Shown: positions 3,062-59,452, counted from the first letter of the stretch. The stretch: DNA of 64,000 nt from Candidatus Moraniibacteriota bacterium (GCA_003483065.1 DMWY01000001.1:8606-72605); one strand, 5' to 3'. Numbers and translations are program-made. The notes: generated by a model not told the origin, from the sequence alone.

Positions 3062-4651
3062 ATGAAGCTATTGAATTTTCCAAAAAAAATTTATCACAAT
3101 ATTGTTGGATATAAATTAACAAATGATATTCAAAAATTTATCAATATAAACAAAAAATATTGGGGTGATTTTCATGGAGATTCAAAAAATGGATATGTTT
3201 TAATAACTGGTTTGAAAAATTCTGCCTCTAATTTTGTGTCGTCAGGAAGAGTCGCAAAATCAATCGAAGAGGAAACTGGTTGCTTACCAATCGTATTAGT
3301 GGATGCACTTAGCTTTTCTTCAAAATATTGGAAGAAAATATATGGATCATATAATATCGACAATTTTTTGTTTTACAGAAATTATCGGAGCAATATTTTT
3401 TTTATAGCTAAATCATTAGTTCTAACTGCAAAATTTTATTTCAAGCAAAAAAGCGTAAATGATTTGTTGAAATTGGAATTTGAAAATATCCGCATAGGAG
3501 ATTTGATATACGATACTATTTTGAGGTTTAATGTTGGATTGTATACAATAGATAAGGTTAAAATAACTTATTTTGGCGATATCTACTCAGCTTTTTTGCT
3601 GGTTATGATATATAAAAAAATATTTAAAAAATATAACATAAAATATATATGTCCAGATCTTTCTGTTTTCATAAGAGGAGGTATTCCACTGAGAATTGCA
3701 GATAAAAATGGTGCGACTGTGATATTGGCTAGTAGAAGAACAATGAAGAGTTATGAAGGATTGGATATTTTCGAAGGAAAACATCGGCCAAGAATGGCAG
3801 AGGTTAATGCTCTTAGGAAAAATACAAATTTGTATAATGATATCGATGGATATTTCGAAAATCGTTTTTCCGGTAATGTCAATGAAATGGATGTTCTAAA
3901 ATCCTATAAAGGAAAAATTGAGTACAATAAAGAATCCTTTTGTAAATACTTAAATTTGGATGAAAATAAACCGATAGTTTTCATAATGCCACACGCTTTT
4001 TCTGATGGACCTCATCATACTCCTATGCATAAGCTATTATTTAGAGATTTTTATGTTTGGCTGGTGGAAACTTTAAAATGCGTTTCTCGTATAAATGATG
4101 TTAACTGGGTTATTAAACCGCATCCAATGTCTTTCAAATATAGAGAAGAAGGAGAAGTGGAAAAATTAGTCAAATTATATGGCAAGAACAACATCCATAT
4201 TGTTCCTGAAGATTTTAACACAAAAAGCATAAAGAATATAGCGGATGTTTTGGTTACTGTACAAGGGAAATCTGGATTAGAATTCAGTTGCTTTGGCATT
4301 CCTGCTATTATTACATCACAAGCATCTTATAGCGGATTTGGATTCACGATTGAGCCAAAAACAGTTAACGAATATTTTGATTTGCTAAAAAATATACCTT
4401 CTATACAAAAATTAAATGAAGACCAAGTAAAAAGCGCAAAAGTTTTATCGGCGATAATGTTTCTTTATTCGCGTACTGACGACCCACTGTTTCCTAAGGG
4501 AGAAGATATTTTATATTTCAGATATAATGAGAAAGCAAGATGGAAACAGAATTGTTTACTTATGGAAAAATATAATAGATCCAAGGATGAATTTTACTTA
4601 AGAGTAAAGGATCTTATAAATTTAAATCTATATAAAAAATATCTAAACTGA
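3062..4651 (+). CDS. GT-B-like 'HP-motif' polymer glycosyl/phosphotransferase, KpsC/KpsS (Capsule_synth) or TagF-like
   Basis: VIKPHPMS ... TVQGKSGLEFSCFGIPAI resembles the Capsule_synth / glycerophosphotransferase C-terminal domain (catalytic His-Pro followed by a T.NS..G.EAl..G.P block). The family assignment is tentative. Confidence 0.35.
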   Translation: MKLLNFPKKIYHNIVGYKLTNDIQKFININKKYWGDFHGDSKNGYVLITGLKNSASNFVSSGRVAKSIEEETGCLPIVLVDALSFSSKYWKKIYGSYNIDNFLFYRNYRSNIFFIAKSLVLTAKFYFKQKSVNDLLKLEFENIRIGDLIYDTILRFNVGLYTIDKVKITYFGDIYSAFLLVMIYKKIFKKYNIKYICPDLSVFIRGGIPLRIADKNGATVILASRRTMKSYEGLDIFEGKHRPRMAEVNALRKNTNLYNDIDGYFENRFSGNVNEMDVLKSYKGKIEYNKESFCKYLNLDENKPIVFIMPHAFSDGPHHTPMHKLLFRDFYVWLVETLKCVSRINDVNWVIKPHPMSFKYREEGEVEKLVKLYGKNNIHIVPEDFNTKSIKNIADVLVTVQGKSGLEFSCFGIPAIITSQASYSGFGFTIEPKTVNEYFDLLKNIPSIQKLNEDQVKSAKVLSAIMFLYSRTDDPLFPKGEDILYFRYNEKARWKQNCLLMEKYNRSKDEFYLRVKDLINLNLYKKYLN

Positions 4652-12944: not shown

Positions 12945-14837
12945 TTATTTATCAAAATATTCCCTAAACCAAAGTTCTAAGGTAATAAGAGCCCAAATAC
13001 GATAAGCATGGCTGATTTGCGTATTTACATGTTCATCTAGAAGGGCTCGCACAGCTTCTTTTTTAAATAACTTTCTATTTATTGCTTTCTCAGATAAAAG
13101 AGTGTCATAAGCGAAATTCTTGAGTTCAGCGCGAAACCAGACATCAATAGGAATACCAAAGCCCATTTTTGGGCGAAACATTACCTCATCTGGCACAAGG
13201 CCACGCAAAGCTTCTTTGAGAATGTATTTTTTATTATTCAGACCTTTGATTTTTAGATTGAATGGAATCTGAGCGGTGAGTTCGAGCAGTTCATGGTCAA
13301 GAAAAGGGGATCGGCCTTCGAGGGCAACTGCCATCGAATCGATGTCAACTTTCACCATCAAATCATCTGGGAGATAGGTTGAAAAATCAGCGAAAAGGCA
13401 TTGATCCATTTTATTTTTCGTTTCAGCTTCGCCAAATTTTTCCGCGACGATATTATAAGAGTCAATATTTTTAGTTTTTTCTTTGAAACTGTCAGTATAA
13501 ATTTCATTTTTAAGTTCATTGGAGAAATAACGGATATAATTTACATATCTATAATCGTATTTTTGAGAAAGTGTATTTGAAAAAACATAAGCTCGATCAA
13601 AAAAAGTATTCTTAATATTTTTTGCTAAAAATTTGGCAATCGGCAAGATGATTTGTTTGTGAAAGGGAATCAATTTATTATAAAGTATTCCAAATTTTTG
13701 CACGCTATATCTCCCATACCCAGCAAAATTTTCATCCCCACCATCGCCGTTAAGTGCCACTGTCACGAAATCTCTGGTCATCTTGGAAACATAATATGTC
13801 GGCAGGGCGCTGGAATCAGCAAAAGGTTCTTCGTATTGTTTCACTAGCATCGGCAAAAGTTCAATAGCATTTGGTTTCACAACAAATTCCTTGTGATCAG
13901 TTTTGAATTTTTCTGCAACAATGCGGGCGTATTTCAATTCATTATATTTTTCTTCTTCAAAACCGATGGAAAAAGTTTTCACTGGCTTGTTTGAGAGCTT
14001 ACTCATGAGAGCCACAATGGCGCTAGAATCAATTCCTCCAGAAAGAAAAGTTCCGAGTGGAACATCGGAAATCATCCTCAGTCTGACTGATTCTTCTAAC
14101 TTTTTCATTATTCTTTTTTTCCATTCGTCTTCCGACATGTCTAATTTTTTAGAATAATCCAATTTCCAATATCTCTCTTTTTCTACCTTTTTTGTTTTTA
14201 GATTAATCAAAAGATAGTGTGCTGGTTCTAATTTTTTGAGATCTTTAAATCCAGTAAGAGGAGTAGGACAGTATTGCAAAGTAAGATAATGATGAATGGC
14301 AACATAATCCGGTTCCTTTCGATATTCTTTTTGTGTGAGAATGGCTTTGAGCTCGGAAGCGAAAATAAAAACATTTTCATTAAGATAATATTTGAAAGGT
14401 TTTTTCCCCACGCGATCACGCGCACAAAAAATCGTTTTTTCTTTTTCGTCATAGATTGCGAAAGAAAACATTCCGCGCAAATGTTCCAAGCATTTTTTTC
14501 CGAATTTATCATAAAGTGCCAAAAGCACCTCCGTGTCTGCTTTGGATTTGAAAGTGTAGCCTTCTTTGATTAACATCTCCCGTTTTTCTTGAAAATTATA
14601 TATCTCTCCATTGAAAACTATCCAATAGCGATTTAGGTAATTCATTGGTTGGTGGCCAAGAGGGGAGAGATCGATAATGGAAAGTCGTCGATGCCCAAGT
14701 CCAATTTTTTTATCTTGTGAGATATATACTCCGCCATCATCCGGACCGCGGTGCAGAATTTTTTCGTTCATAGCCAAAATATCCTGCTCCGAAACAGAAT
14801 CATTTTCAAAATAAATTTTACCAGTTATTCCACACAT
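12945..14837 (-). CDS. asnB: Asparagine synthase (glutamine-hydrolysing) family amidotransferase; in this context possibly a WbpS-like uronic-acid amidotransferase
   Basis: MCGITG supplies the N-terminal Cys nucleophile. LSGGIDSSAIVALM is the PP-loop. The protein is 630 aa. Confidence 0.85.
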   Translation of the reverse strand: MCGITGKIYFENDSVSEQDILAMNEKILHRGPDDGGVYISQDKKIGLGHRRLSIIDLSPLGHQPMNYLNRYWIVFNGEIYNFQEKREMLIKEGYTFKSKADTEVLLALYDKFGKKCLEHLRGMFSFAIYDEKEKTIFCARDRVGKKPFKYYLNENVFIFASELKAILTQKEYRKEPDYVAIHHYLTLQYCPTPLTGFKDLKKLEPAHYLLINLKTKKVEKERYWKLDYSKKLDMSEDEWKKRIMKKLEESVRLRMISDVPLGTFLSGGIDSSAIVALMSKLSNKPVKTFSIGFEEEKYNELKYARIVAEKFKTDHKEFVVKPNAIELLPMLVKQYEEPFADSSALPTYYVSKMTRDFVTVALNGDGGDENFAGYGRYSVQKFGILYNKLIPFHKQIILPIAKFLAKNIKNTFFDRAYVFSNTLSQKYDYRYVNYIRYFSNELKNEIYTDSFKEKTKNIDSYNIVAEKFGEAETKNKMDQCLFADFSTYLPDDLMVKVDIDSMAVALEGRSPFLDHELLELTAQIPFNLKIKGLNNKKYILKEALRGLVPDEVMFRPKMGFGIPIDVWFRAELKNFAYDTLLSEKAINRKLFKKEAVRALLDEHVNTQISHAYRIWALITLELWFREYFDK

Positions 14838-16194
14838 GAGCGTTTAGAAATTTTTGTAAACCAAAAAGTAAGTCGGTATTAATACCATAAGAATAGAGAA
14901 GATTAATGAGGATAAAAAAGAATAACCCTAAATATAAAAATATTTTTATAATTATATGATGAAGTTTGTTCTTAATTAGCTCATCATTTAGTTTAAAGGA
15001 GAGCCATACACCATAGGCATATATGAGAAATGTAATTGGCCAAATAAAAACAAGAGATCTATCAGCATGTTCATTAATAGAGGATAATAATGTAAAAGTT
15101 AAAGCAGAAAAATAAAGAGAGAGAATTTTATATTGCTTATAATGAAATAAAATAAAGATTACATATATAAATATTATCACAAATGCAAAGTTAAAAAAAA
15201 TCCAATTAAAATATCTATCCTCAATAATCGCAAATCCAGGGAATAAGTCACTATATTTATAATGGTTTGTTTGTTTGCTTATTGCTGTTGTTGATGGCGA
15301 AGATGATGGTGATGGCGATGGCGAGAATGATGAAGAAGAAGATGAAGAAGATGAAGCTGAGGATGATAAAGATGATGAAGAAGATAAGACGGGACTTGTT
15401 TTTGGTGATTCAATAGTGGAATTAATAATATTAGAATTTATGATAAATGATTTGATGCCATAAGGATTATCCCCATCTAAATAATAAGATGTTGGAAGAT
15501 AAAAAATAAATAAAATGAAAATTGAAAGGGCTATTTTTTTTAGCATAAGCAAATCGATTTTTTTTATAAAAAAAGAATAAAAAATATAAAAAAGAGCTAG
15601 AGTTATCATTAAATATAAAAAGATTGTATGAGTATATAGTCCTAGCGGAATCAATACTAACAATATTATTTTCCAATGTTTATAATTGCCCAATATAATT
15701 GCAAATATAACAAATATTAATAAAACAGCAAAAAATCCAGGTACTATCCACCAAAATCCATGGTACCGGCCACCATTATATAGGGCGAGAAAAAAAAGCA
15801 AGAAAGCAATTAGCTTTTTGTCTGTTTCTATATTTTTTAAAAAAATAATCAACGAAGGCAATAGAATCAAAATTCCAATATAGAAGCTTAAATGAAAAAC
15901 ATCCACAGCCTTTATGTTTAGTAATTGACCAATAGAACCGAAAAATAATCGATAAGACAAATGTTCAAATCCAAAATAATCATTAAAAGAAGATAGAAAC
16001 TCTTCACAAGAAAAAAGAGAAGGACATTTAATAATTGAATTTATATGATATATGTATGTTTGAGCTTCCTCTCCTCTTGACCACTCGTGATCAAATAGAA
16101 CAGAAATTAAGAAAAATTTCCATCCAATAAAAAATAAGGAGGATAATAAAATCCACTTATTGCTTTTGATGAAAATTATAATTCTCTCAATCAT
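14818..16194 (-). CDS. Polytopic membrane protein with an internal Ser/Pro/Thr-rich low-complexity loop
   Basis: The sequence is highly hydrophobic and contains SSSSSLSSSASSSSSSSSSFSPSPSPSSSPSTT. It overlaps the asnB start by 20 nt. Confidence 0.45.
   Translation of the reverse strand: MIERIIIFIKSNKWILLSSLFFIGWKFFLISVLFDHEWSRGEEAQTYIYHINSIIKCPSLFSCEEFLSSFNDYFGFEHLSYRLFFGSIGQLLNIKAVDVFHLSFYIGILILLPSLIIFLKNIETDKKLIAFLLFFLALYNGGRYHGFWWIVPGFFAVLLIFVIFAIILGNYKHWKIILLVLIPLGLYTHTIFLYLMITLALFYIFYSFFIKKIDLLMLKKIALSIFILFIFYLPTSYYLDGDNPYGIKSFIINSNIINSTIESPKTSPVLSSSSSLSSSASSSSSSSSSFSPSPSPSSSPSTTAISKQTNHYKYSDLFPGFAIIEDRYFNWIFFNFAFVIIFIYVIFILFHYKQYKILSLYFSALTFTLLSSINEHADRSLVFIWPITFLIYAYGVWLSFKLNDELIKNKLHHIIIKIFLYLGLFFFILINLLYSYGINTDLLFGLQKFLNAHVWNNW
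15290..15440 (-). repeat. Trinucleotide-biased low-complexity DNA encoding the poly-Ser/Pro linker (coordinates approximate)
   Basis: (GAW)n-like runs on the + strand; the + strand mirror ORF 15275..15463 is poly-Asp/Glu. Confidence 0.6.
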
Positions 16195-17332
16195 TTTTTA
16201 GTATTTCTAGGTATTTTTCAATGGAATTTTCCCAACCAAAATTAATATTTAACTTAATTTTATTATTCTTTTTGTATCTTTTAATTTTTTCTTTATCTAA
16301 AATAAGCTCTGTTATTTTTTTTGCTACTAATTCTTTTTCTGATTTTTCAATCAAGAGTCCATTTTGATTATCTTGGATAACTTCATCCGCACCTTCATTG
16401 GGCGTAGCAATGATTGCACAGCCACAAGCCATTGCTTCCAGAAGGGAAGTTGAAAGTCCTCCCCCTGGCATTGAAGAATGCAGATAAATGTCAGAAATTT
16501 TTAGAATACTGATAACTTTTTCTCGTGGTAAATTCCCAAACATTTTTACGCAACTTTCTTTTTTGGATATTTTTTCTAGATATTGAAAATCTTCCCCGTC
16601 GCCAATTATCAAAAAAACAATTTTTTCTTTCAAGTCTTTGGGCAGAAGTTTTATTGCTTCGATACTATTTTCAACCCCTTTCCATTTGTATAATCTTCCA
16701 ATAAAAGAAATTATTATCTTATTTTCAAATTCTTTTTTTGTTTCTAAATCAGGAATAATTTTTTCAATAGCTTCAAAATCTAAACCGCGATAAATAATCG
16801 GCGACTCTCTTTTGTCGAACTTGAAAACAAATTTTTGAACAGCCTTGGAAATGGAAATGTTTAAATCGGAAAATCTAAAAATTAAAAATCCAAAAGTATA
16901 ATCATATGATTTTGCAATAGCCGTTTTGAAATTGCTTGAGAGTTTTACAAAATCTGAGCCATGCTCAATGTGGATCCAACGAACTTTTTTTATTTTAGCA
17001 TAAATAAGAGTGAGAAGCGAGGTATTGAAAAATCTAGTGCGAGAAATTGTGATATCAAATTTTTGATTGAATAATCTCAGAAAAAGCGACCAGAATTTCA
17101 ACGACCAAAATTTTGGCAGGGGATAATTGGAAATAATTTCAAAAGCTGGAAAACGAATAATTTTTACATTGTTGTATAGTATTTCAGATTCAGGAGAATT
17201 TTTTGGTAATTTCGGCGTAAAAACAGTTATATCTATCCCTCTTTGAGATAGATATTTATTGAATTCATCAGCGTGTGATTCTAGCCCGCCAGTATGAGGC
17301 GGGTAATATGGGCAAAATATTAGAAGTTTCAT
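16187..17332 (-). CDS. Glycosyltransferase family 4
   Basis: LEAMACGCAIIATPNEGADEVIQDNQNGLLIE is present. Confidence 0.7.
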   Translation of the reverse strand: MKLLIFCPYYPPHTGGLESHADEFNKYLSQRGIDITVFTPKLPKNSPESEILYNNVKIIRFPAFEIISNYPLPKFWSLKFWSLFLRLFNQKFDITISRTRFFNTSLLTLIYAKIKKVRWIHIEHGSDFVKLSSNFKTAIAKSYDYTFGFLIFRFSDLNISISKAVQKFVFKFDKRESPIIYRGLDFEAIEKIIPDLETKKEFENKIIISFIGRLYKWKGVENSIEAIKLLPKDLKEKIVFLIIGDGEDFQYLEKISKKESCVKMFGNLPREKVISILKISDIYLHSSMPGGGLSTSLLEAMACGCAIIATPNEGADEVIQDNQNGLLIEKSEKELVAKKITELILDKEKIKRYKKNNKIKLNINFGWENSIEKYLEILKND

Positions 17333-17676
17333 TTTTTATTATTTATTTCTTTTAAGCTTTCTTTTCTGGTCAAAATCGATATATTTTGTTCTAATCTTTC
17401 GATAGAATTGAGGAGCTTAAAGATGATAAGGAAAATTAGAATGAATCCAACTAAAATAACAGCGTTGATGTTACCTTCAATTCCTATAAGTGTGGCCAGG
17501 CTTATGCTGGCTTTGGGATAAATAACAATTGCAATCATTCCACCCCACACAATTAGCCTAATGAGAAGTTTCAAAAAAGTTTGTTGGCGTTGTTTTTTGA
17601 AATATCGATCCGCACCCTGATAAATCATCAAGGCGGAAATTATTATAACTGCAATTTGGTACAAATGGATGTTCAT
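17329..17676 (-). CDS. DUF2304-like small membrane protein (typical partner of GtrB-like GT2)
   Basis: The protein is 115 aa with two or three TM helices and a C-terminal amphipathic LEQNISILTRK segment. Confidence 0.5.
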   Translation of the reverse strand: MNIHLYQIAVIIISALMIYQGADRYFKKQRQQTFLKLLIRLIVWGGMIAIVIYPKASISLATLIGIEGNINAVILVGFILIFLIIFKLLNSIERLEQNISILTRKESLKEINNKK

Positions 17677-17685
17677 AATATTAGT

Positions 17686-17711
17686 AATTTTAAATTTTTA
17701 ATTTTAAATTT
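17686..17711. repeat. Left inverted-repeat arm (2x AATTTTAAATTT) flanking the four-helix-bundle gene
   Basis: Its reverse complement AAATTTAAAATT occurs twice at 18141-18159. Confidence 0.5.
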
Positions 17712-17742
17712 GAAATGAAATATTAATTATTAAATTTTAAAT

Positions 17743-18111
17743 CTATTCTTTTTTATTCTCAATAGTTTTAATGATTTTTGAGAAAATTAATGTTAATTCT
17801 TGGGCTTCTTTCCAATAAATTCTACATTCTTCAGTTACGCTAGGTATAGATTTGGAAATAAGTTGCAACCAATATTTTGTTTCTTTTGCTTCTTTTTTAC
17901 AAATATAAATTTTATTTTTAAAATCTTTTTTTGAACTAGCTCCATTTGCTTCACAATAATTAGCGCCAATACTAGTTGCCGATCTAACTAGTTGGCTTAT
18001 AATCGGGATTGTTATTATATTTTTTTCTATTCCAGAAAGAAATACGATCATATCCTCACTAAATTTTGAAGTTCTATCTTCTAGGTCGTATTGTTTTTTG
18101 TTTTCGTTCAT
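17743..18111 (-). CDS. Four-helix-bundle protein (TIGR02436-type, '23S rRNA intervening-sequence protein' family)
   Basis: SIGANYCEANGASSKKDFKNKIYICKKEAKETKYWLQLI matches the IAEG.GR.S..DF..FL.IA.GS..E core of that family. Confidence 0.7.
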   Translation of the reverse strand: MNENKKQYDLEDRTSKFSEDMIVFLSGIEKNIITIPIISQLVRSATSIGANYCEANGASSKKDFKNKIYICKKEAKETKYWLQLISKSIPSVTEECRIYWKEAQELTLIFSKIIKTIENKKE

Positions 18112-18140
18112 TTATAAATTTGATATTGATTAAAAATTAT

Positions 18141-18159
18141 AAATTTAAAATTTAAAATT
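18141..18159. repeat. Right inverted-repeat arm (AAATTTAAAATT x2, overlapping)
   Basis: Reverse complement of the left arm. It lies 2 nt downstream of the GT2 stop. Confidence 0.5.
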
Positions 18160-18161
18160 GT

Positions 18162-18839
18162 TCAAGAAATTATACTCCAAATCATTTTATATAATGTTTT
18201 GAGACCGGTGAGAAAATCTTGTTTTTGAATTTTGCCCATTGAATATTCGGTGTAGCGAACAGTGATTGGAACTTCCTTGTATTTTAGCTTATATTTTCTA
18301 ATTTCGCGAATTACTTCGCTGTCATATTCATAACGATCAGACTTAGTATTGATAACTTCGGCAGCGTGACGAGAGTAGGCGCGAAAGCCGGACTGGGAAT
18401 CGGTCACCCAAAGGCCATAGAGGTACCAGGTGAAAAAATTTCCAATTTTGTTGGCTAGAATTTTGTGTGCCGGCATACCTTTGGGGTTGAGAAGTCGAGT
18501 GCCGAGCACTACATCAAAATTTTCAAATTCAATCGGCGCGGTCAACCTAGCAATGTCGGCTGGATCATGCTGTCCATCACCGTCAAGTGTGACAATAATA
18601 TCCGCGCCCAAAATTTTGGCCGCTTCAATGCCGGTTTTAGTAGCGGCGCCTTTCCCGCGATTTAGGCGATGGCGAAAAACCAAACCACCCAAGATTTCTT
18701 GGGCTTTGGAAAAAGTGTCATCGACGCTTCCGTCATCAACTACGACGATGTTTTCATAACCGGACTTTTTGATTTCAGCTATGACATCGCAAATGACTTT
18801 TCCTTCATTGTAGGCCGGAATAACAATATATATTTTCAT
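18162..18839 (-). CDS. Glycosyltransferase family 2, soluble polyprenyl-phosphate sugar synthase-like (DPM1-like)
   Basis: IVIPAYNEGKVI, VVVDDGSVDDT and TLDGDGQHDP are present. The gene has markedly higher GC than its surroundings. Confidence 0.8.
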   Translation of the reverse strand: MKIYIVIPAYNEGKVICDVIAEIKKSGYENIVVVDDGSVDDTFSKAQEILGGLVFRHRLNRGKGAATKTGIEAAKILGADIIVTLDGDGQHDPADIARLTAPIEFENFDVVLGTRLLNPKGMPAHKILANKIGNFFTWYLYGLWVTDSQSGFRAYSRHAAEVINTKSDRYEYDSEVIREIRKYKLKYKEVPITVRYTEYSMGKIQKQDFLTGLKTLYKMIWSIIS

Positions 18840-18952: not shown

Positions 18953-19891
18953 ATGTCAGAAAACAAAAAAATATCAGTGGTAGTGCCGTTGTATAACGAA
19001 GAGGGGAATGTCAAAAATTTGCATGCTAAGATTCTGAGTGCTTGTCAGAATCTTGGTCGAGAATTTGAAATTATTTTTATTGATGATGGATCGAAAGATA
19101 AGACAGTGGAAAACTGCCAAGGACTTTCGCCATTGAAGCTGATTGAATTTAGAAGAAATTTTGGCCAAACCGCTGCTTTTGATGCGGGGATAAAAAATGC
19201 CGAAGGAGATATTATTATCACGATGGATGGTGATTTACAAAATGATCCGGCAGATATTGGGTTGCTTTTAGAAGAAATGGAAAAAGGTTTTGATATTGTT
19301 TCCGGTTGGAGATTTAACAGAAAAGATAATTTTTCTAAAAAGTTCTTTTCACGGGGAGCTAATCTGCTTCGAAAGATTTTGATTCACGACAAAATACATG
19401 ACAGTGGCTGTTCTTTGAAAGCTTATCGAAAAGAGTGTTTTGCGGACGTGGATCTTTTTGGTGAAATGCATCGTTTTATCCCGGCACTTTTAGAATTGCA
19501 GGGGTATAAGGTGGGAGAAGTGAAAGTCTCGCATCATCCACGAGTCAGTGGAGTGACGAAATATAATTGGAAGAGGGGAATGAAAGGTTTTGTGGATATG
19601 GTTTCTATTTGGTTTTGGGGAAAATATTCCAACAGGCCGTTGCATCTTTTTGGCGGTTCAGGAATAATTTTGTCCTTGGCTGGTTTTGGAATCTTGACTT
19701 GGATGGCGATTGGAAAGATATTTTTTGCTATGTCACTTTCACAAAAAATTTGGCCACTGATGGGTGTGTTTTTTATCATGATTGGCATCCAACTTTTCAT
19801 TTTCGGACTTTTAGCTGATATTCTTGTTAAGAATTATTACAAAAGCCAAAATAGAATGAACTACTCGATTAAAGAGATAAAAGAATCATGA
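18953..19891 (+). CDS. GtrB/ArnC-like GT2 polyprenyl-phosphate glycosyltransferase with two C-terminal TM helices
   Basis: VVPLYNEEGNV, IFIDDGSKDKT, TMDGDLQNDP and a C-terminal hydrophobic pair are present. Confidence 0.8.
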   Translation: MSENKKISVVVPLYNEEGNVKNLHAKILSACQNLGREFEIIFIDDGSKDKTVENCQGLSPLKLIEFRRNFGQTAAFDAGIKNAEGDIIITMDGDLQNDPADIGLLLEEMEKGFDIVSGWRFNRKDNFSKKFFSRGANLLRKILIHDKIHDSGCSLKAYRKECFADVDLFGEMHRFIPALLELQGYKVGEVKVSHHPRVSGVTKYNWKRGMKGFVDMVSIWFWGKYSNRPLHLFGGSGIILSLAGFGILTWMAIGKIFFAMSLSQKIWPLMGVFFIMIGIQLFIFGLLADILVKNYYKSQNRMNYSIKEIKES

Positions 19892-19979
19892 AGCATGAAG
19901 CATATAACATGAAACATAAAATTAATTAAAAAATAATTCGTAATTCGTACATTTGTATGGATTCGTAATTCGTAAGGGA

Positions 19980-21314
19980 ATGAAAATTGCAATTATTGGA
20001 ACGGGTTATGTGGGATCAGTGACGGGGGCTTGTTTTGCTGAAATGGGCAACACTGTCATTTGCGTGGATAATAATCCACAAAAAGTTGAACAATTCAGAA
20101 GTGGAAAAGTTCCACTGCACGAAAAAGGATTGGATGAGTTGGTGGCGCGAAACTTGAAAAATGAAACTTTGAATTTTACCACTAATTTGAAAGAGGCACT
20201 GGACGCTAGTGACATAGTTTTTATCGCGGTTGGTACTCCGCCCAATGAAGATGGCAGTGCTGACTTGAGTCACGTAATTGGTGTGGCAAAATCAATCGGA
20301 CAAATGATAGAACATGAACTGATTATTGTGGACAAATCAACTGTGCCAGTGGGAACGGCAGAATTAGTCAAAAAAACCATCAAAGAGGAACAAGAAATGC
20401 GGGGAGTGAATATTCCCTTTCATGTTGTGAGTAATCCTGAGTTTTTGGCGCAAGGAACGGCAGTAAAGGACTTTCTTGAGCCTAGTCGCATTGTGGTGGG
20501 GGCAGATGATGAGAAGACCCTAAAAGCAATGGAAGAGCTGTATGCGCCTTTTATGCGCCGGGAGGGTCGTTTTTATGCTATGGATCCAAAAACTGCTGAA
20601 ACAGTGAAGTATGCGGCTAACAGCTTTTTGGCAGCTAAGATATCAATCAACAATGAATTAGCTAATATTTGTGCCAGAGTGGGTGCGGATTTTGATTTAG
20701 TGAGGAAGGCAATGGGGGCCGATCCGAGAATTGGTGAGCCTTTTATGTATGCTGGTCCGGGGTTTGGTGGGAGTTGTTTTCCAAAGGATGTCAAAGCTCT
20801 CATTAAGATTGCCAAAGATTATGGCTATACAGCAGAAATGTTTTTGCAGACATTGGAAACTAATGAGAAACAAAAACATGTTCTGGCGGATATGGTGATA
20901 GAAAAATTTCCCGATAATTTAGAAGGCAAAATTTTCTCTGTTTGGGGTTTGGCTTTCAAGGCGGGGACAGATGATATGCGAGAATCTTCGGCGCTTACAA
21001 TCATCAACAAACTTATCGACAATGGCGCAAAAATTCAAGCCTATGATCCGGAAGCGATGAAGATGGCGAAAACTTCGGAGTATTTCGGCGACAATTCTGC
21101 AATTACTTATTTTGAAAATAAATATGAAGCGCTCAGTGGAACGGATGGACTTTTGATCATTACAGAATGGAAAGAATTTCGTACCCCGGATTTTTCTCAA
21201 ATGAAAAAAAATCTAAAACAGCCGTTGATTTTTGATGGCCGACTTATGTATGACGTCAAAAAGATGCAAGAGCTTGGTTTTGAATATCGTTCAATTGGAA
21301 GAAGAGTTGAATAA
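19980..21314 (+). CDS. ugd: UDP-glucose 6-dehydrogenase
   Basis: MKIAIIGTGYVGSVTGACFAEMGN is the Rossmann N-terminus. GGSCFPKDV contains the catalytic Cys. The ORF-track start at 19953 is a TTG extension. Confidence 0.9.
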   Translation: MKIAIIGTGYVGSVTGACFAEMGNTVICVDNNPQKVEQFRSGKVPLHEKGLDELVARNLKNETLNFTTNLKEALDASDIVFIAVGTPPNEDGSADLSHVIGVAKSIGQMIEHELIIVDKSTVPVGTAELVKKTIKEEQEMRGVNIPFHVVSNPEFLAQGTAVKDFLEPSRIVVGADDEKTLKAMEELYAPFMRREGRFYAMDPKTAETVKYAANSFLAAKISINNELANICARVGADFDLVRKAMGADPRIGEPFMYAGPGFGGSCFPKDVKALIKIAKDYGYTAEMFLQTLETNEKQKHVLADMVIEKFPDNLEGKIFSVWGLAFKAGTDDMRESSALTIINKLIDNGAKIQAYDPEAMKMAKTSEYFGDNSAITYFENKYEALSGTDGLLIITEWKEFRTPDFSQMKKNLKQPLIFDGRLMYDVKKMQELGFEYRSIGRRVE

Positions 21315-36705: not shown

Positions 36706-36734
36706 TTTATTTTTTACTAATTACGAATTGTATG

Positions 36735-47032: not shown

Positions 47033-47080
47033 TAAATTTAATAAATTCGTACTTTCGTTTAATTCGTATTTTCGTAAATT

Positions 47081-49594: not shown

Positions 49595-50440
49595 TTGTTT
49601 TATGTTTCATGTTTTATGTTTCATGATCCAATGGAATTATCCATCATCATTACTAATTATAAAAATCCGGAACTCTTGAAAGTTTGTATTGATTCGATTA
49701 GGGAAAATATCACATTGCATGATTATGAAATTATTGTGGCGGATAGTGAGACAGAAGAAAAAACCGAAATGATGATGAGAGAGGAATATCCCCAAATAGA
49801 ATTTATTCCATCGAAAAAAAACATTGGCTTTAGCGGAACTGTTAACGCTGGATATCAGAAAGCTAAAGGAGAATACATACTTATTCTCAATGGTGACACT
49901 ATAATAAAAAAAGATTCGATCGAAAAATTGTTAAGCTATATCAAAAATAATCCCAATGTTGGCATAGTCGGACCACGTCTTTTGGGTTTCAATGAAAAAC
50001 CACAAGATTCTTGTTTTCGCTTTTATACCCCGCTAACTATCGTGTATCGCCGGACATTTTTGGGTAAATTTGGTTTTGCTAAAAAACATTCAGATAATTT
50101 TCTTATGAAAGATTATGATCATAAGGAGATAAAAGAAGTTGATTGGATTCAGGGATCGGCGATGATGACAAAAAAAGAGATTATGGATAAGGTTGGTTTG
50201 ATGGATGAAAAATATAAGCTATATTTTGAAGATGTGGATTGGTGTCGAAGATTTTGGGAAAAAGGTTATAGCGTTGTTTATTATCCAGACTCCGAAATCT
50301 ATCATTATCATGGCAGAGGAAGCGCGGGCAGAAGCGTTATCCAGTCATTACTTTCTAACCGTTTAACTTGGTGGCACATAAAAAGTGCAGTGAGATATTT
50401 TTGGAAATATTGGGGTAAGCCATTACCAAAACATAACTAG
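49595..50440 (+). CDS. Glycosyltransferase family 2
   Basis: LSIIITNYKNPELL, DSETEE and NGDT are present. 49595 is a TTG; the ATG at 49631 (MELSIIIT) is the more plausible start. Confidence 0.75.
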   Translation: MFYVSCFMFHDPMELSIIITNYKNPELLKVCIDSIRENITLHDYEIIVADSETEEKTEMMMREEYPQIEFIPSKKNIGFSGTVNAGYQKAKGEYILILNGDTIIKKDSIEKLLSYIKNNPNVGIVGPRLLGFNEKPQDSCFRFYTPLTIVYRRTFLGKFGFAKKHSDNFLMKDYDHKEIKEVDWIQGSAMMTKKEIMDKVGLMDEKYKLYFEDVDWCRRFWEKGYSVVYYPDSEIYHYHGRGSAGRSVIQSLLSNRLTWWHIKSAVRYFWKYWGKPLPKHN

Positions 50441-59387: not shown

Positions 59388-59452
59388 TGTTTGTAAATTT
59401 ATTAAAGTTTCTTTATGAACTTTTAACTTTATAGACTTTTAACTTAACTTAT

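Follow-up and report, generated by a model that had tools for sequence, protein, structure and literature searches.

Inverted heptad arrays delimit a four-helix-bundle gene cassette inserted at a GT2-DUF2304 junction of a candidate phyla radiation genome

In the DNA discussed here, the gene of a small four-helix-bundle (4HB) protein and the two inverted arrays of heptanucleotide units (heptads) around it form a cassette, which is inserted between two genes that are adjacent in close relatives. The DNA is a 64-kb stretch (33% G+C), below called the window, of a candidate phyla radiation (CPR) genome, that of a Candidatus Moraniibacteriota bacterium (GCA_003483065.1 DMWY01000001.1:8606-72605). 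The 4HB gene belongs to the S23p / 23S_rRNA_IVP / Avd-like family, occupies 17743-18111 and encodes 122 aa. It is preceded by a GT2 glycosyltransferase gene (18162-18839) and followed by a gene for a DUF2304 small membrane protein (17329-17676), all three being co-directional on the minus strand. The stretch 17686-18159 is best regarded as one self-contained cassette of about 474 bp, with a functional 4HB gene inside two inverted arrays of about four heptads each. The cassette family occupies intercistronic spacers at many unrelated sites in CPR genomes, is found in other phyla too, and is built like those 23S rRNA intervening sequences (IVSs) that carry an open reading frame (ORF). As the best explanation we propose, with a probability of about 0.55, that a self-contained IVS-type cassette was inserted here, that the arms are its ends, and that, by analogy, they pair and are cut by RNase III.

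Results

A conserved protein between two arrays

Proteins of the PF05635/TIGR02436 family are among the commonest small bacterial proteins annotated as hypothetical, and are scattered in polysaccharide, restriction-modification and cas loci. An earlier sequence-only reading of the window had placed a TIGR02436-type ORF of 122 aa between the GT2 and DUF2304 genes. The assignment holds, as the protein scores 55.9 bits with PF05635 (E = 5.8e-15) and 76.4 bits with TIGR02436 (E = 1.7e-21), above the respective cut-offs of 33.8 and 24. The solved 4HB member PDB 2RLD is a full-length match (E = 6.3e-14 over residues 2-119 of the window protein). Family members have about 120 aa and the motif GxxRxxxSxxxNxxE (PMC3936711). 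The window protein has R43-x3-S47-x3-N51-x2-E54 inside QLVRSATSIGANYCEA, and the leading G of the motif is missing. The protein is functional and under strong purifying selection, with a ratio of non-synonymous to synonymous substitution rates (dN/dS) of 0.07-0.09 between the window gene and its relatives. Membership of the HEPN superfamily was considered for this family and dropped, since a HEPN survey (PMC3710099) does not mention the family.

The 5' arm (18129-18159, minus strand) consists of about four heptads, AATTTTA AATTTTA AATTTAT AATTTTT AAT, the first of which is 2 nt away from the TGA stop of the GT2 gene. Between this arm and the ATG lies a short, conserved leader, CAATATCAAATTTATAA (18112-18128, minus strand), which has no Shine-Dalgarno motif. 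The leader unit AATCAAT(A/T)T(C/T)AAAT is seen repeatedly across CPR cassettes. The 3' arm (17686-17742, minus strand) is a period-7 array of about eight units that reads ATTTAAAATTTAATAATTAATATTTCATTTCAAATTTAAAATTAAAAATTTAAAATT, and a 9-nt remainder, ACTAATATT (17677-17685, minus strand), separates its last heptad from the DUF2304 start codon. Read on the coding strand, the arms thus place (AATTTTN)4 before the ATG and complementary units past the stop codon. The 5' arm finds its best complement in the distal part of the 3' arm, 17686-17709. Tandem Repeats Finder reports period 7 in both spacers (17686-17742, 8.4 copies; 18130-18159, 4.1 copies). In a repeat search, inverted arms are found at 17686-17709 / 18129-18152 (24 nt, 92% complementary) and at 17686-17735 / 18110-18159 (50 nt, 74% complementary). 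A promoter-like TTGAAC-18-TATAAT that overlaps the 5' arm is not enriched over shuffles and is conserved in the closest cassette subgroup only; it was not relied on.

Since the two spacers are 94-95% A+T, the inverted repeat could be a chance product of A/T-only, low-complexity sequence around an ordinary resident gene. The repeats have the coordinates and sequences given in the sequence-only reading: the 12-mer AATTTTAAATTT is present on the plus strand at 17686-17697 and 17700-17711, and its reverse complement at 18141-18152 and 18148-18159, where the two copies overlap by 5 nt and are thus in a 7-nt register. That the arms are heptad arrays had not been remarked upon, nor had the other inserts that relatives carry at the same junction. 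The exact 12-mer occurs five times in the 64 kb, against 1.04 copies expected, four of the five flank the 4HB ORF in inverted orientation, and the count of five is attained in none of 100 shuffles. With one mismatch allowed, no window-wide excess is left (17 copies, 18.6 expected). The best ungapped complementarity of the two spacers is 18, compared with 10.4 +/- 1.7 in 3000 dinucleotide-preserving shuffles (p = 0.002, and likewise p = 0.002 for mononucleotide shuffles). The spacer composition, the degenerate 12-mer and a duplex energy of the window arms that is not significant (see below) would be in line with chance. However, the shuffles, the lack of the gene in close relatives and the recurrence of the architecture, built from other heptads that contain G/C, across 82 cassettes and further phyla make this explanation extremely improbable. 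The inverted heptad arms belong to the cassette and are its ends, and are not AT-rich noise.

One architecture in many CPR lineages

The homologs P0011, P0013 and P0017 (74-79% protein identity) have a 50-nt leader nearly identical to that of the window copy and a similar trailer. A scan of species-representative genomes yielded 80 further loci from many CPR lineages, and 82 distinct cassettes were compared. A scan of viral contigs found no close relatives. In nearly all scanned loci, heptad arrays upstream of the ORF are matched by complementary arrays downstream. The modal arm has four heptads (28 nt), and the 5' array is 0-20 nt from the ATG. The heptad sequence varies by locus with arm complementarity kept. 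AATTTTC / GAAAATT is common, L039 has AAGTCTA / TAGACTT, L065 has AAATCCC / GGGATTT, and in L052 a perfect 31-bp inverted repeat includes even the odd unit AATTACC / GGTAATT.

The arms of a cassette are matched to each other. The score of the 5' arm against its own 3' arm is 18.0, against 3' arms of other loci 12.6, and against shuffles 7.9, with the own 3' arm ranking 7th of 82 at the median. Inverted similarity of the arms exceeds direct similarity in 74/82 cassettes (p = 3e-13). A G or C of the 5' arm is opposite its complement in 59% of own pairings and in 42% of cross pairings. For flanking inverted repeats, 4HB genes score 17.2, compared with 8.5 for other genes of the same loci with comparable spacers (Mann-Whitney p = 1e-18).

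The limits of the unit follow from L074 and L076, two contigs of one metagenome-assembled genome (CAJVXI01), which carry copies that are 95% identical over 476 nt, exactly arm-ORF-arm. The similarity ends at the outer heptads, the flanks are unrelated, and the heptads extend into the last codons of the ORF. As these limits define the copied unit, the unit in the window is 17686-18159 by the same criterion. The suggestion of the sequence-only reading that the inverted repeats are part of the cassette is therefore borne out twice, by the co-variation of the arms in the 82 cassettes and by paralogs that are identical across arm-ORF-arm only.

Two variants of the architecture were observed. The locus L075 has a second, divergent PF05635 gene (4126-4482, E = 4.8e-26, with a weak bAvd-like match); it has inverted (AAAATCA)n arms of its own, so the architecture holds across distant branches of the family. 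In L024, L028, L060 and L065, the stop codon is followed, ahead of the true 3' arm, by an extra heptad array resembling the 5' arm, which would permit a local hairpin in competition with the long-range stem.

A variable junction between GT2 and DUF2304

A metagenome scan with the window GT2 gave 29 loci. Relatives with GT2 proteins 82-94% identical and DUF2304 proteins about 81% identical to those of the window have no 4HB gene between the two genes. The spacer is 10 nt in L101, which is syntenic with the window, including a divergent GT2b and a UDP-glucose dehydrogenase (UGDH) gene, and 20-35 nt in L104-L107, L111, L113-L115 and L119, where the genes are likewise adjacent. In the window, the pair is split by 485 nt. 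The proposal that the cassette splits a normally adjacent pair is thus correct for close relatives, in which the spacers of 10-35 nt lack the 4HB gene.

Other relatives have other inserts. ORF-less hairpins of 94-98 nt with short-period repeats are present in L096-L098 and L108 (z = -5.4), L120 has a hairpin resembling that of L096 (z = -6.9), and L100 and L102 have one of 80 nt (z = -2.9). An AAA_14+DUF4143 ATPase gene occupies the junction in L109 (2342-3583), L110 and L103 (from about 1007), and a gene for a protein with Schlafen/AlbA_2, HATPase_c_4 and helix-turn-helix domains in L112 (552-1928) and L099 (from about 1278). The adjacency, the hairpins and the varied cargo indicate that direct GT2-DUF2304 adjacency is the ground state and that the junction is an insertion hot spot. 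The 4HB cassette is an insert at this variable junction. The hairpins at L096 2270-2366, L120 202-307 and L100 662-744 begin exactly at the GT2 stop codon, and their AAGTCC / GGACTT repeat flavour resembles the arms of the L039 4HB cassette. The L099 copy of the Schlafen/AlbA_2 gene has an in-frame TGA.

The position of the gene might instead mean that the 4HB protein is a dedicated partner of GT2/DUF2304 glycosylation, or an Avd, the accessory protein of diversity-generating retroelements (DGRs). The order GT2-4HB-DUF2304 does recur in the P0011 and P0013 lineages, and in the P0017 homologue the 4HB gene again follows a GtrB-like GT2, being located between it and UGDH; in the window, this GtrB-like GT2-UGDH pair (18953-21314) is adjacent, with no 4HB gene between. 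The family is also related to Avd, and the bAvd proteins of DGRs have a homologous 4HB fold and belong to the family neighbourhood. In contrast, closer relatives of the window locus lack the 4HB gene, annotated neighbours on plasmids include helicase and methylase genes, and downstream neighbours elsewhere include DnaJ, MetK, YchF and epimerases, as read from their first codons. The window protein has no bAvd Pfam match, and, unlike in DGRs, the gene table lists no reverse transcriptase up to 6 kb away on either side, and there are no nearby template/variable repeats. Both roles are contradicted by these data and very unlikely.

Copies in other phyla and kinship with rRNA intervening sequences

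In a tblastn search of plasmids, family members were found in four other phyla, and eight copies were examined. Those of Nostoc and Dolichospermum plasmids (L126, L127) are perfect (AATTCGT)4 - ORF - (ACGAATT)4 cassettes, and a second Nostoc copy has the arms (AATTCAA)4 / (TTTTGAA)4. In the copies from Planktothrix and Chlorohelix the inverted heptads are imperfect, and the arrays that flank those of Treponema, Bernardetia and Pseudanabaena on either side are of short period and for the most part directly oriented. In L127, L128 and L129, from cyanobacterial and Chloroflexota plasmids, the 4HB gene has a helicase-related gene on one side and a large gene, such as one for an N6-DNA-methylase, on the other, and interrupts what look like restriction or defence operons.

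The sequence-only reading had pointed to rRNA IVSs as elements of the same build. The 428-nt 23S IVS of Coxiella burnetii is closed by a 28-bp stem of terminal inverted repeats, the loop of which contains an S23p ORF. Three tandem heptamers and a degenerate fourth precede the ORF directly, and RNase III cuts at the first heptamer (PMC4990558). In CPR bacteria, PF05635 ORFs have been reported in insertions of both 16S and 23S rRNA (PMC11270868). Taken together, the Coxiella IVS and the CPR rRNA insertions imply an architecture common to rRNA-resident and operon-resident copies, and the kinship suggested earlier is thus supported by stem, ORF and tandem heptamers alike.

The likeness to ORF-bearing 23S rRNA IVSs, which are described for Coxiella burnetii, Leptospira, Xanthomonas and Brucella (PMC4990558), extends to the size of about 430-480 nt, to terminal inverted repeats (about 28 nt) that can enclose the element and leave the S23p/PF05635 ORF in a loop, and to a sporadic distribution that suggests horizontal spread. 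With the Coxiella type, the cassettes also share tandem heptamers directly before the ORF and a Shine-Dalgarno sequence that is poor or absent. There are differences, however. The window cassette lies between two protein-coding cistrons and not in helix 25 or 45 of a 23S rRNA gene, strong purifying selection maintains its ORF, in contrast to the decaying one of Coxiella, and its arms are A/T-only heptads, for which RNase III processing is predicted only.

Pairing in RNA or a role in DNA

In the explanation that we prefer, the window copy would have been inserted or exchanged at the GT2-DUF2304 hot spot, with the heptad arms as the ends of the copied unit. On the analogy of rRNA IVSs, base pairing of the two arms in the mRNA of the operon would yield a stem of about 24-30 bp that closes a loop containing the ORF. 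RNase III would cut such a stem, and the 4HB message would thereby be released from those of GT2 and DUF2304, which would make the insertion tolerable. We infer that the arms pair as RNA and are cleaved by RNase III, and also how the cassette moves. The modal arm length of about 28 nt fits a double-stranded RNA (dsRNA) substrate. Across the family, the calculated duplex of a cassette's own arms has -25.7 kcal/mol, as against -18.7 kcal/mol in cross pairings and -14.2 kcal/mol in shuffles. The sequence-only reading had envisaged that the flanks could pair and excise or insulate the insert, which co-folding should reveal. For the window copy, the answer is mixed: the minimum free energy and centroid folds have a long-range stem between the flanks, in which the partner of the 5' arm is the part of the 3' array next to the stop codon, but the energies do not stand out from those of shuffled sequences.

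A number of results count against IVS-like processing, or against a shared IVS-type element. The RNAduplex energy of the window flanks is -14.6 kcal/mol, compared with -11.8 +/- 2.9 kcal/mol for shuffles (p = 0.16), the partition function gives 23 expected flank-to-flank pairs instead of 11.7 +/- 7.3 (p = 0.07), and the fold of the whole cassette has z = -1.7. There is no excess of G·U over A·C mismatches in the arms of the 82 cassettes (67 versus 69 overall; GU 19, AC 27 and other 63 among isolated mismatches), and the transversion type dominates. Co-orientation with the upstream (64/69) and downstream (60/69) neighbours, examined as a sign that the cassette depends on read-through transcription, is not above the baseline of 0.88. 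In the P0011 group, which is the closest other group (e.g. L006, L009), the 3' array is partly in direct register, A3T4 and not A4T3. According to the published description, on which the comparison is based, the Coxiella heptamers are direct and on one side only. The sequence-only reading had proposed to look inside rRNA operons as well; rRNA was found next to the cassette in 0/95 related loci by 23S/16S motif and Rfam searches, and no Rfam families were found in the 64-kb window. The claim of a shared element thus rests on architecture and the literature. As to movement, no target-site duplication is seen at L074/L076, the one informative pair of paralogs (junctions CTAA|...|GTCT and ATCC|...|ATTA), and no transposase or recombinase is present in the gene tables of the loci examined. 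RNA-level excision of the window cassette is doubtful.

The absence of a wobble preference, the A/U-only arms that are not significantly stable and the baseline co-orientation make a purely DNA-level role of the arms a serious rival. They would then serve a non-autonomous mobile cassette as terminal inverted repeats or for recombination, or act in double-stranded DNA as a pair of binding sites, with no part in RNA processing. Movement could be due to an enzyme acting in trans, or to recombination with pre-existing heptad arrays in spacers that serve as landing pads. Equal numbers of G·U and A·C mismatches are predicted by a strand-symmetric constraint. A DNA-level role is further consistent with same-genome paralogs that are identical exactly to the outer heptads, with the ORF-less heptad hairpins and other cargo at the same junction in relatives, and with period-7 arrays elsewhere in CPR loci (about 1 per 13 kb away from 4HB genes, several of them in the window). 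Among homologous cassettes, the 5' arm is 92% identical (46/50 nt, direct reading) while synonymous sites of the ORF differ at 67%, so that the arm must be constrained well beyond the need to pair. Against a role in DNA alone stand the missing target-site duplication, the lack of transposase or recombinase genes beside any copy in the gene tables, and the Coxiella IVS, a characterised relative that is processed as RNA by RNase III inside a heptamer-bearing stem. The 28-nt modal arm also suits dsRNA, and an RNA role remains compatible. A role in DNA alone is thus a realistic possibility, if not the probable one. The RNA-processing and DNA-level readings are mutually compatible.

Known mobile elements resemble the cassette only in part. 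Like miniature inverted-repeat transposable elements (MITEs) and the intercistronic hairpins known as repetitive extragenic palindromic sequences and bacterial interspersed mosaic elements (REP/BIME), it is a short inverted-repeat element in operon spacers, present in some relatives and not in others. As in MITEs and transposons, its ends are terminal inverted repeats and copies are found at several unrelated sites, and the ORF-less versions at the same junction (L096, L100, L120) are MITE- or REP/BIME-like. In contrast to these elements, it has a conserved protein gene and tandem-heptad arms, and target-site duplication is not seen. Integron gene cassettes are likewise small, promoter-poor, single-ORF units found at many sites. 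However, they have a single 3' attC instead of two complementary arms around the ORF, and the 4HB cassette has no integrase or array context.

Heptads as binding sites of the encoded protein

The heptad arrays could also be binding sites of the 4HB protein itself, relatives of which form pentameric rings. By binding about 4-5 heptads beside its start codon, the protein would regulate its own gene or help in copying or processing the element. Heptads of very different sequence always accompany the gene, in CPR bacteria, Cyanobacteriota, Chloroflexota, Spirochaetota and the Coxiella IVS, which points to co-evolution of protein and sites. The modal number of four units per arm, the 5' array that abuts the ATG (0-20 nt) and the purifying selection on the protein would be in agreement with this. 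PF05635 resembles Avd, which binds nucleic acid or reverse transcriptase (PMC10053308), and family members are homopentamers according to the part of PMC4990558 that cites Lin 2006. On the other hand, sequence-specific binding is only predicted for every family member, heptad arrays exist far from any 4HB gene, and co-inheritance of arms and ORF accounts for their co-variation without binding. We therefore consider such a function of the arrays unlikely.

Heptad arrays without a 4HB gene

Period-7 arrays are ten-fold enriched beside 4HB genes, with 41/75 strong arrays of the CPR loci in the 5.6% of the sequence that adjoins a 4HB ORF. In the window, other heptad or short-period arrays lie in spacers at 19883-19975, 36706-36734, 47033-47080, 49596-49625 and 59388-59452. 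The first is in the spacer between the GtrB-like GT2 gene (18953-19891) and UGDH, and has (ATGAARC)4, then (AATTCGT)2 ... (ATTCGTA)2, without a 4HB gene. It is partly conserved in L101 and absent from L117, and its AATTCGT unit also makes up the arms of the Nostoc and Dolichospermum cassettes (L126, L127). Units resembling AATTCGTA are found again at 36706-36734 and 47033-47080. The array at 49596-49625, (ATGTTTY)4, is part of the 5' leader of a GT2 gene, and 30 kb away, at 19883-19921, its unit is found as the reverse complement. The TTG listed as the start of this gene (49595) is probably too far upstream, and translation is likely to start at an ATG at about 49633. At 59388-59452, there is an intercistronic hairpin (z = -2.5), the (AACTTTNN)n units of which resemble the 3' half of the ORF-less hairpin of L096-L098.

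Similar repeats are found in other bacteria. Cyanobacterial short tandemly repeated repetitive (STRR) sequences, associated with the name of Mazel and the year 1990, are reportedly intergenic heptanucleotide tandem repeats. Beggiatoaceae have intergenic TAACTGA heptanucleotide repeats as orphan arrays (PMC4679880), and Geobacter metallireducens has paired heptanucleotide sites between operon genes, which were read as regulator-binding sites (PMC2700814). Like the arrays of the cassettes, all of them are tandem 7-nt units of about 4-5 copies in intergenic spacers inside operons, and the Geobacter sites, inverted pairs about 100 nt apart, resemble cassette arms. In the Beggiatoaceae and Geobacter reports, however, the arrays are without an ORF and the 4HB family is not mentioned, whereas the arrays described here bracket a gene.

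Genes around the cassette

The upstream GT2 protein (225 aa) is PpgS-like and matches PF00535 (Glycos_transf_2) with E = 5.7e-23. PpgS is its best NCBIfam match, with a score of 148.5 bits that is below the cut-off of 370 of this equivalog model. The downstream DUF2304 protein (115 aa), which is the customary partner of such a GT2, matches PF10066 with E = 2.7e-15. According to the gene table, only glycosylation genes, an Asn synthase and a methyltransferase are found within +/-6 kb of the 4HB gene. At 14818-16194 (minus strand), the glycosylation cluster includes an ORF for a multi-pass membrane protein of 458 aa, which has a long Ser/Pro-rich tract and no Pfam match.

Discussion

The 4HB protein family, the rRNA IVSs and the intergenic heptamer repeats are each already known separately. 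What appears to be new is the IVS-type, heptad-armed cassette between cistrons and its recurrence across phyla, a combination that we did not find described in the literature. For a link between 4HB genes and heptad arrays, only the heptamers of the Coxiella IVS were found in the literature. The presence of 4HB genes should be treated with caution in annotation, as they are inserts and not members of the host operons in which they are found.

The observations also invite a broader, and rather improbable, interpretation. 4HB proteins and heptad arrays may be the two parts of one widespread system, mobile or regulatory, that resides in rRNA as IVSs or between cistrons, with a protein pentamer that recognises about 4-5 heptads. 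If true, this would explain the origin of ORF-bearing rRNA IVSs, the function of the very large PF05635/TIGR02436 family and the intergenic heptamer repeats (cyanobacterial STRR, Beggiatoa TAACTGA, the Geobacter paired sites and the CPR arrays) at the same time. For these repeats, which have been unexplained for decades, the cassettes provide a lead.

ORF-bearing rRNA IVSs have been known since the early 1990s, and to our knowledge it is still unexplained where they come from, how they spread and what their conserved ORF does. If copies outside rRNA keep the IVS build, the IVS would be no more than the form taken in rRNA by a general cassette that settles in transcribed spacers.

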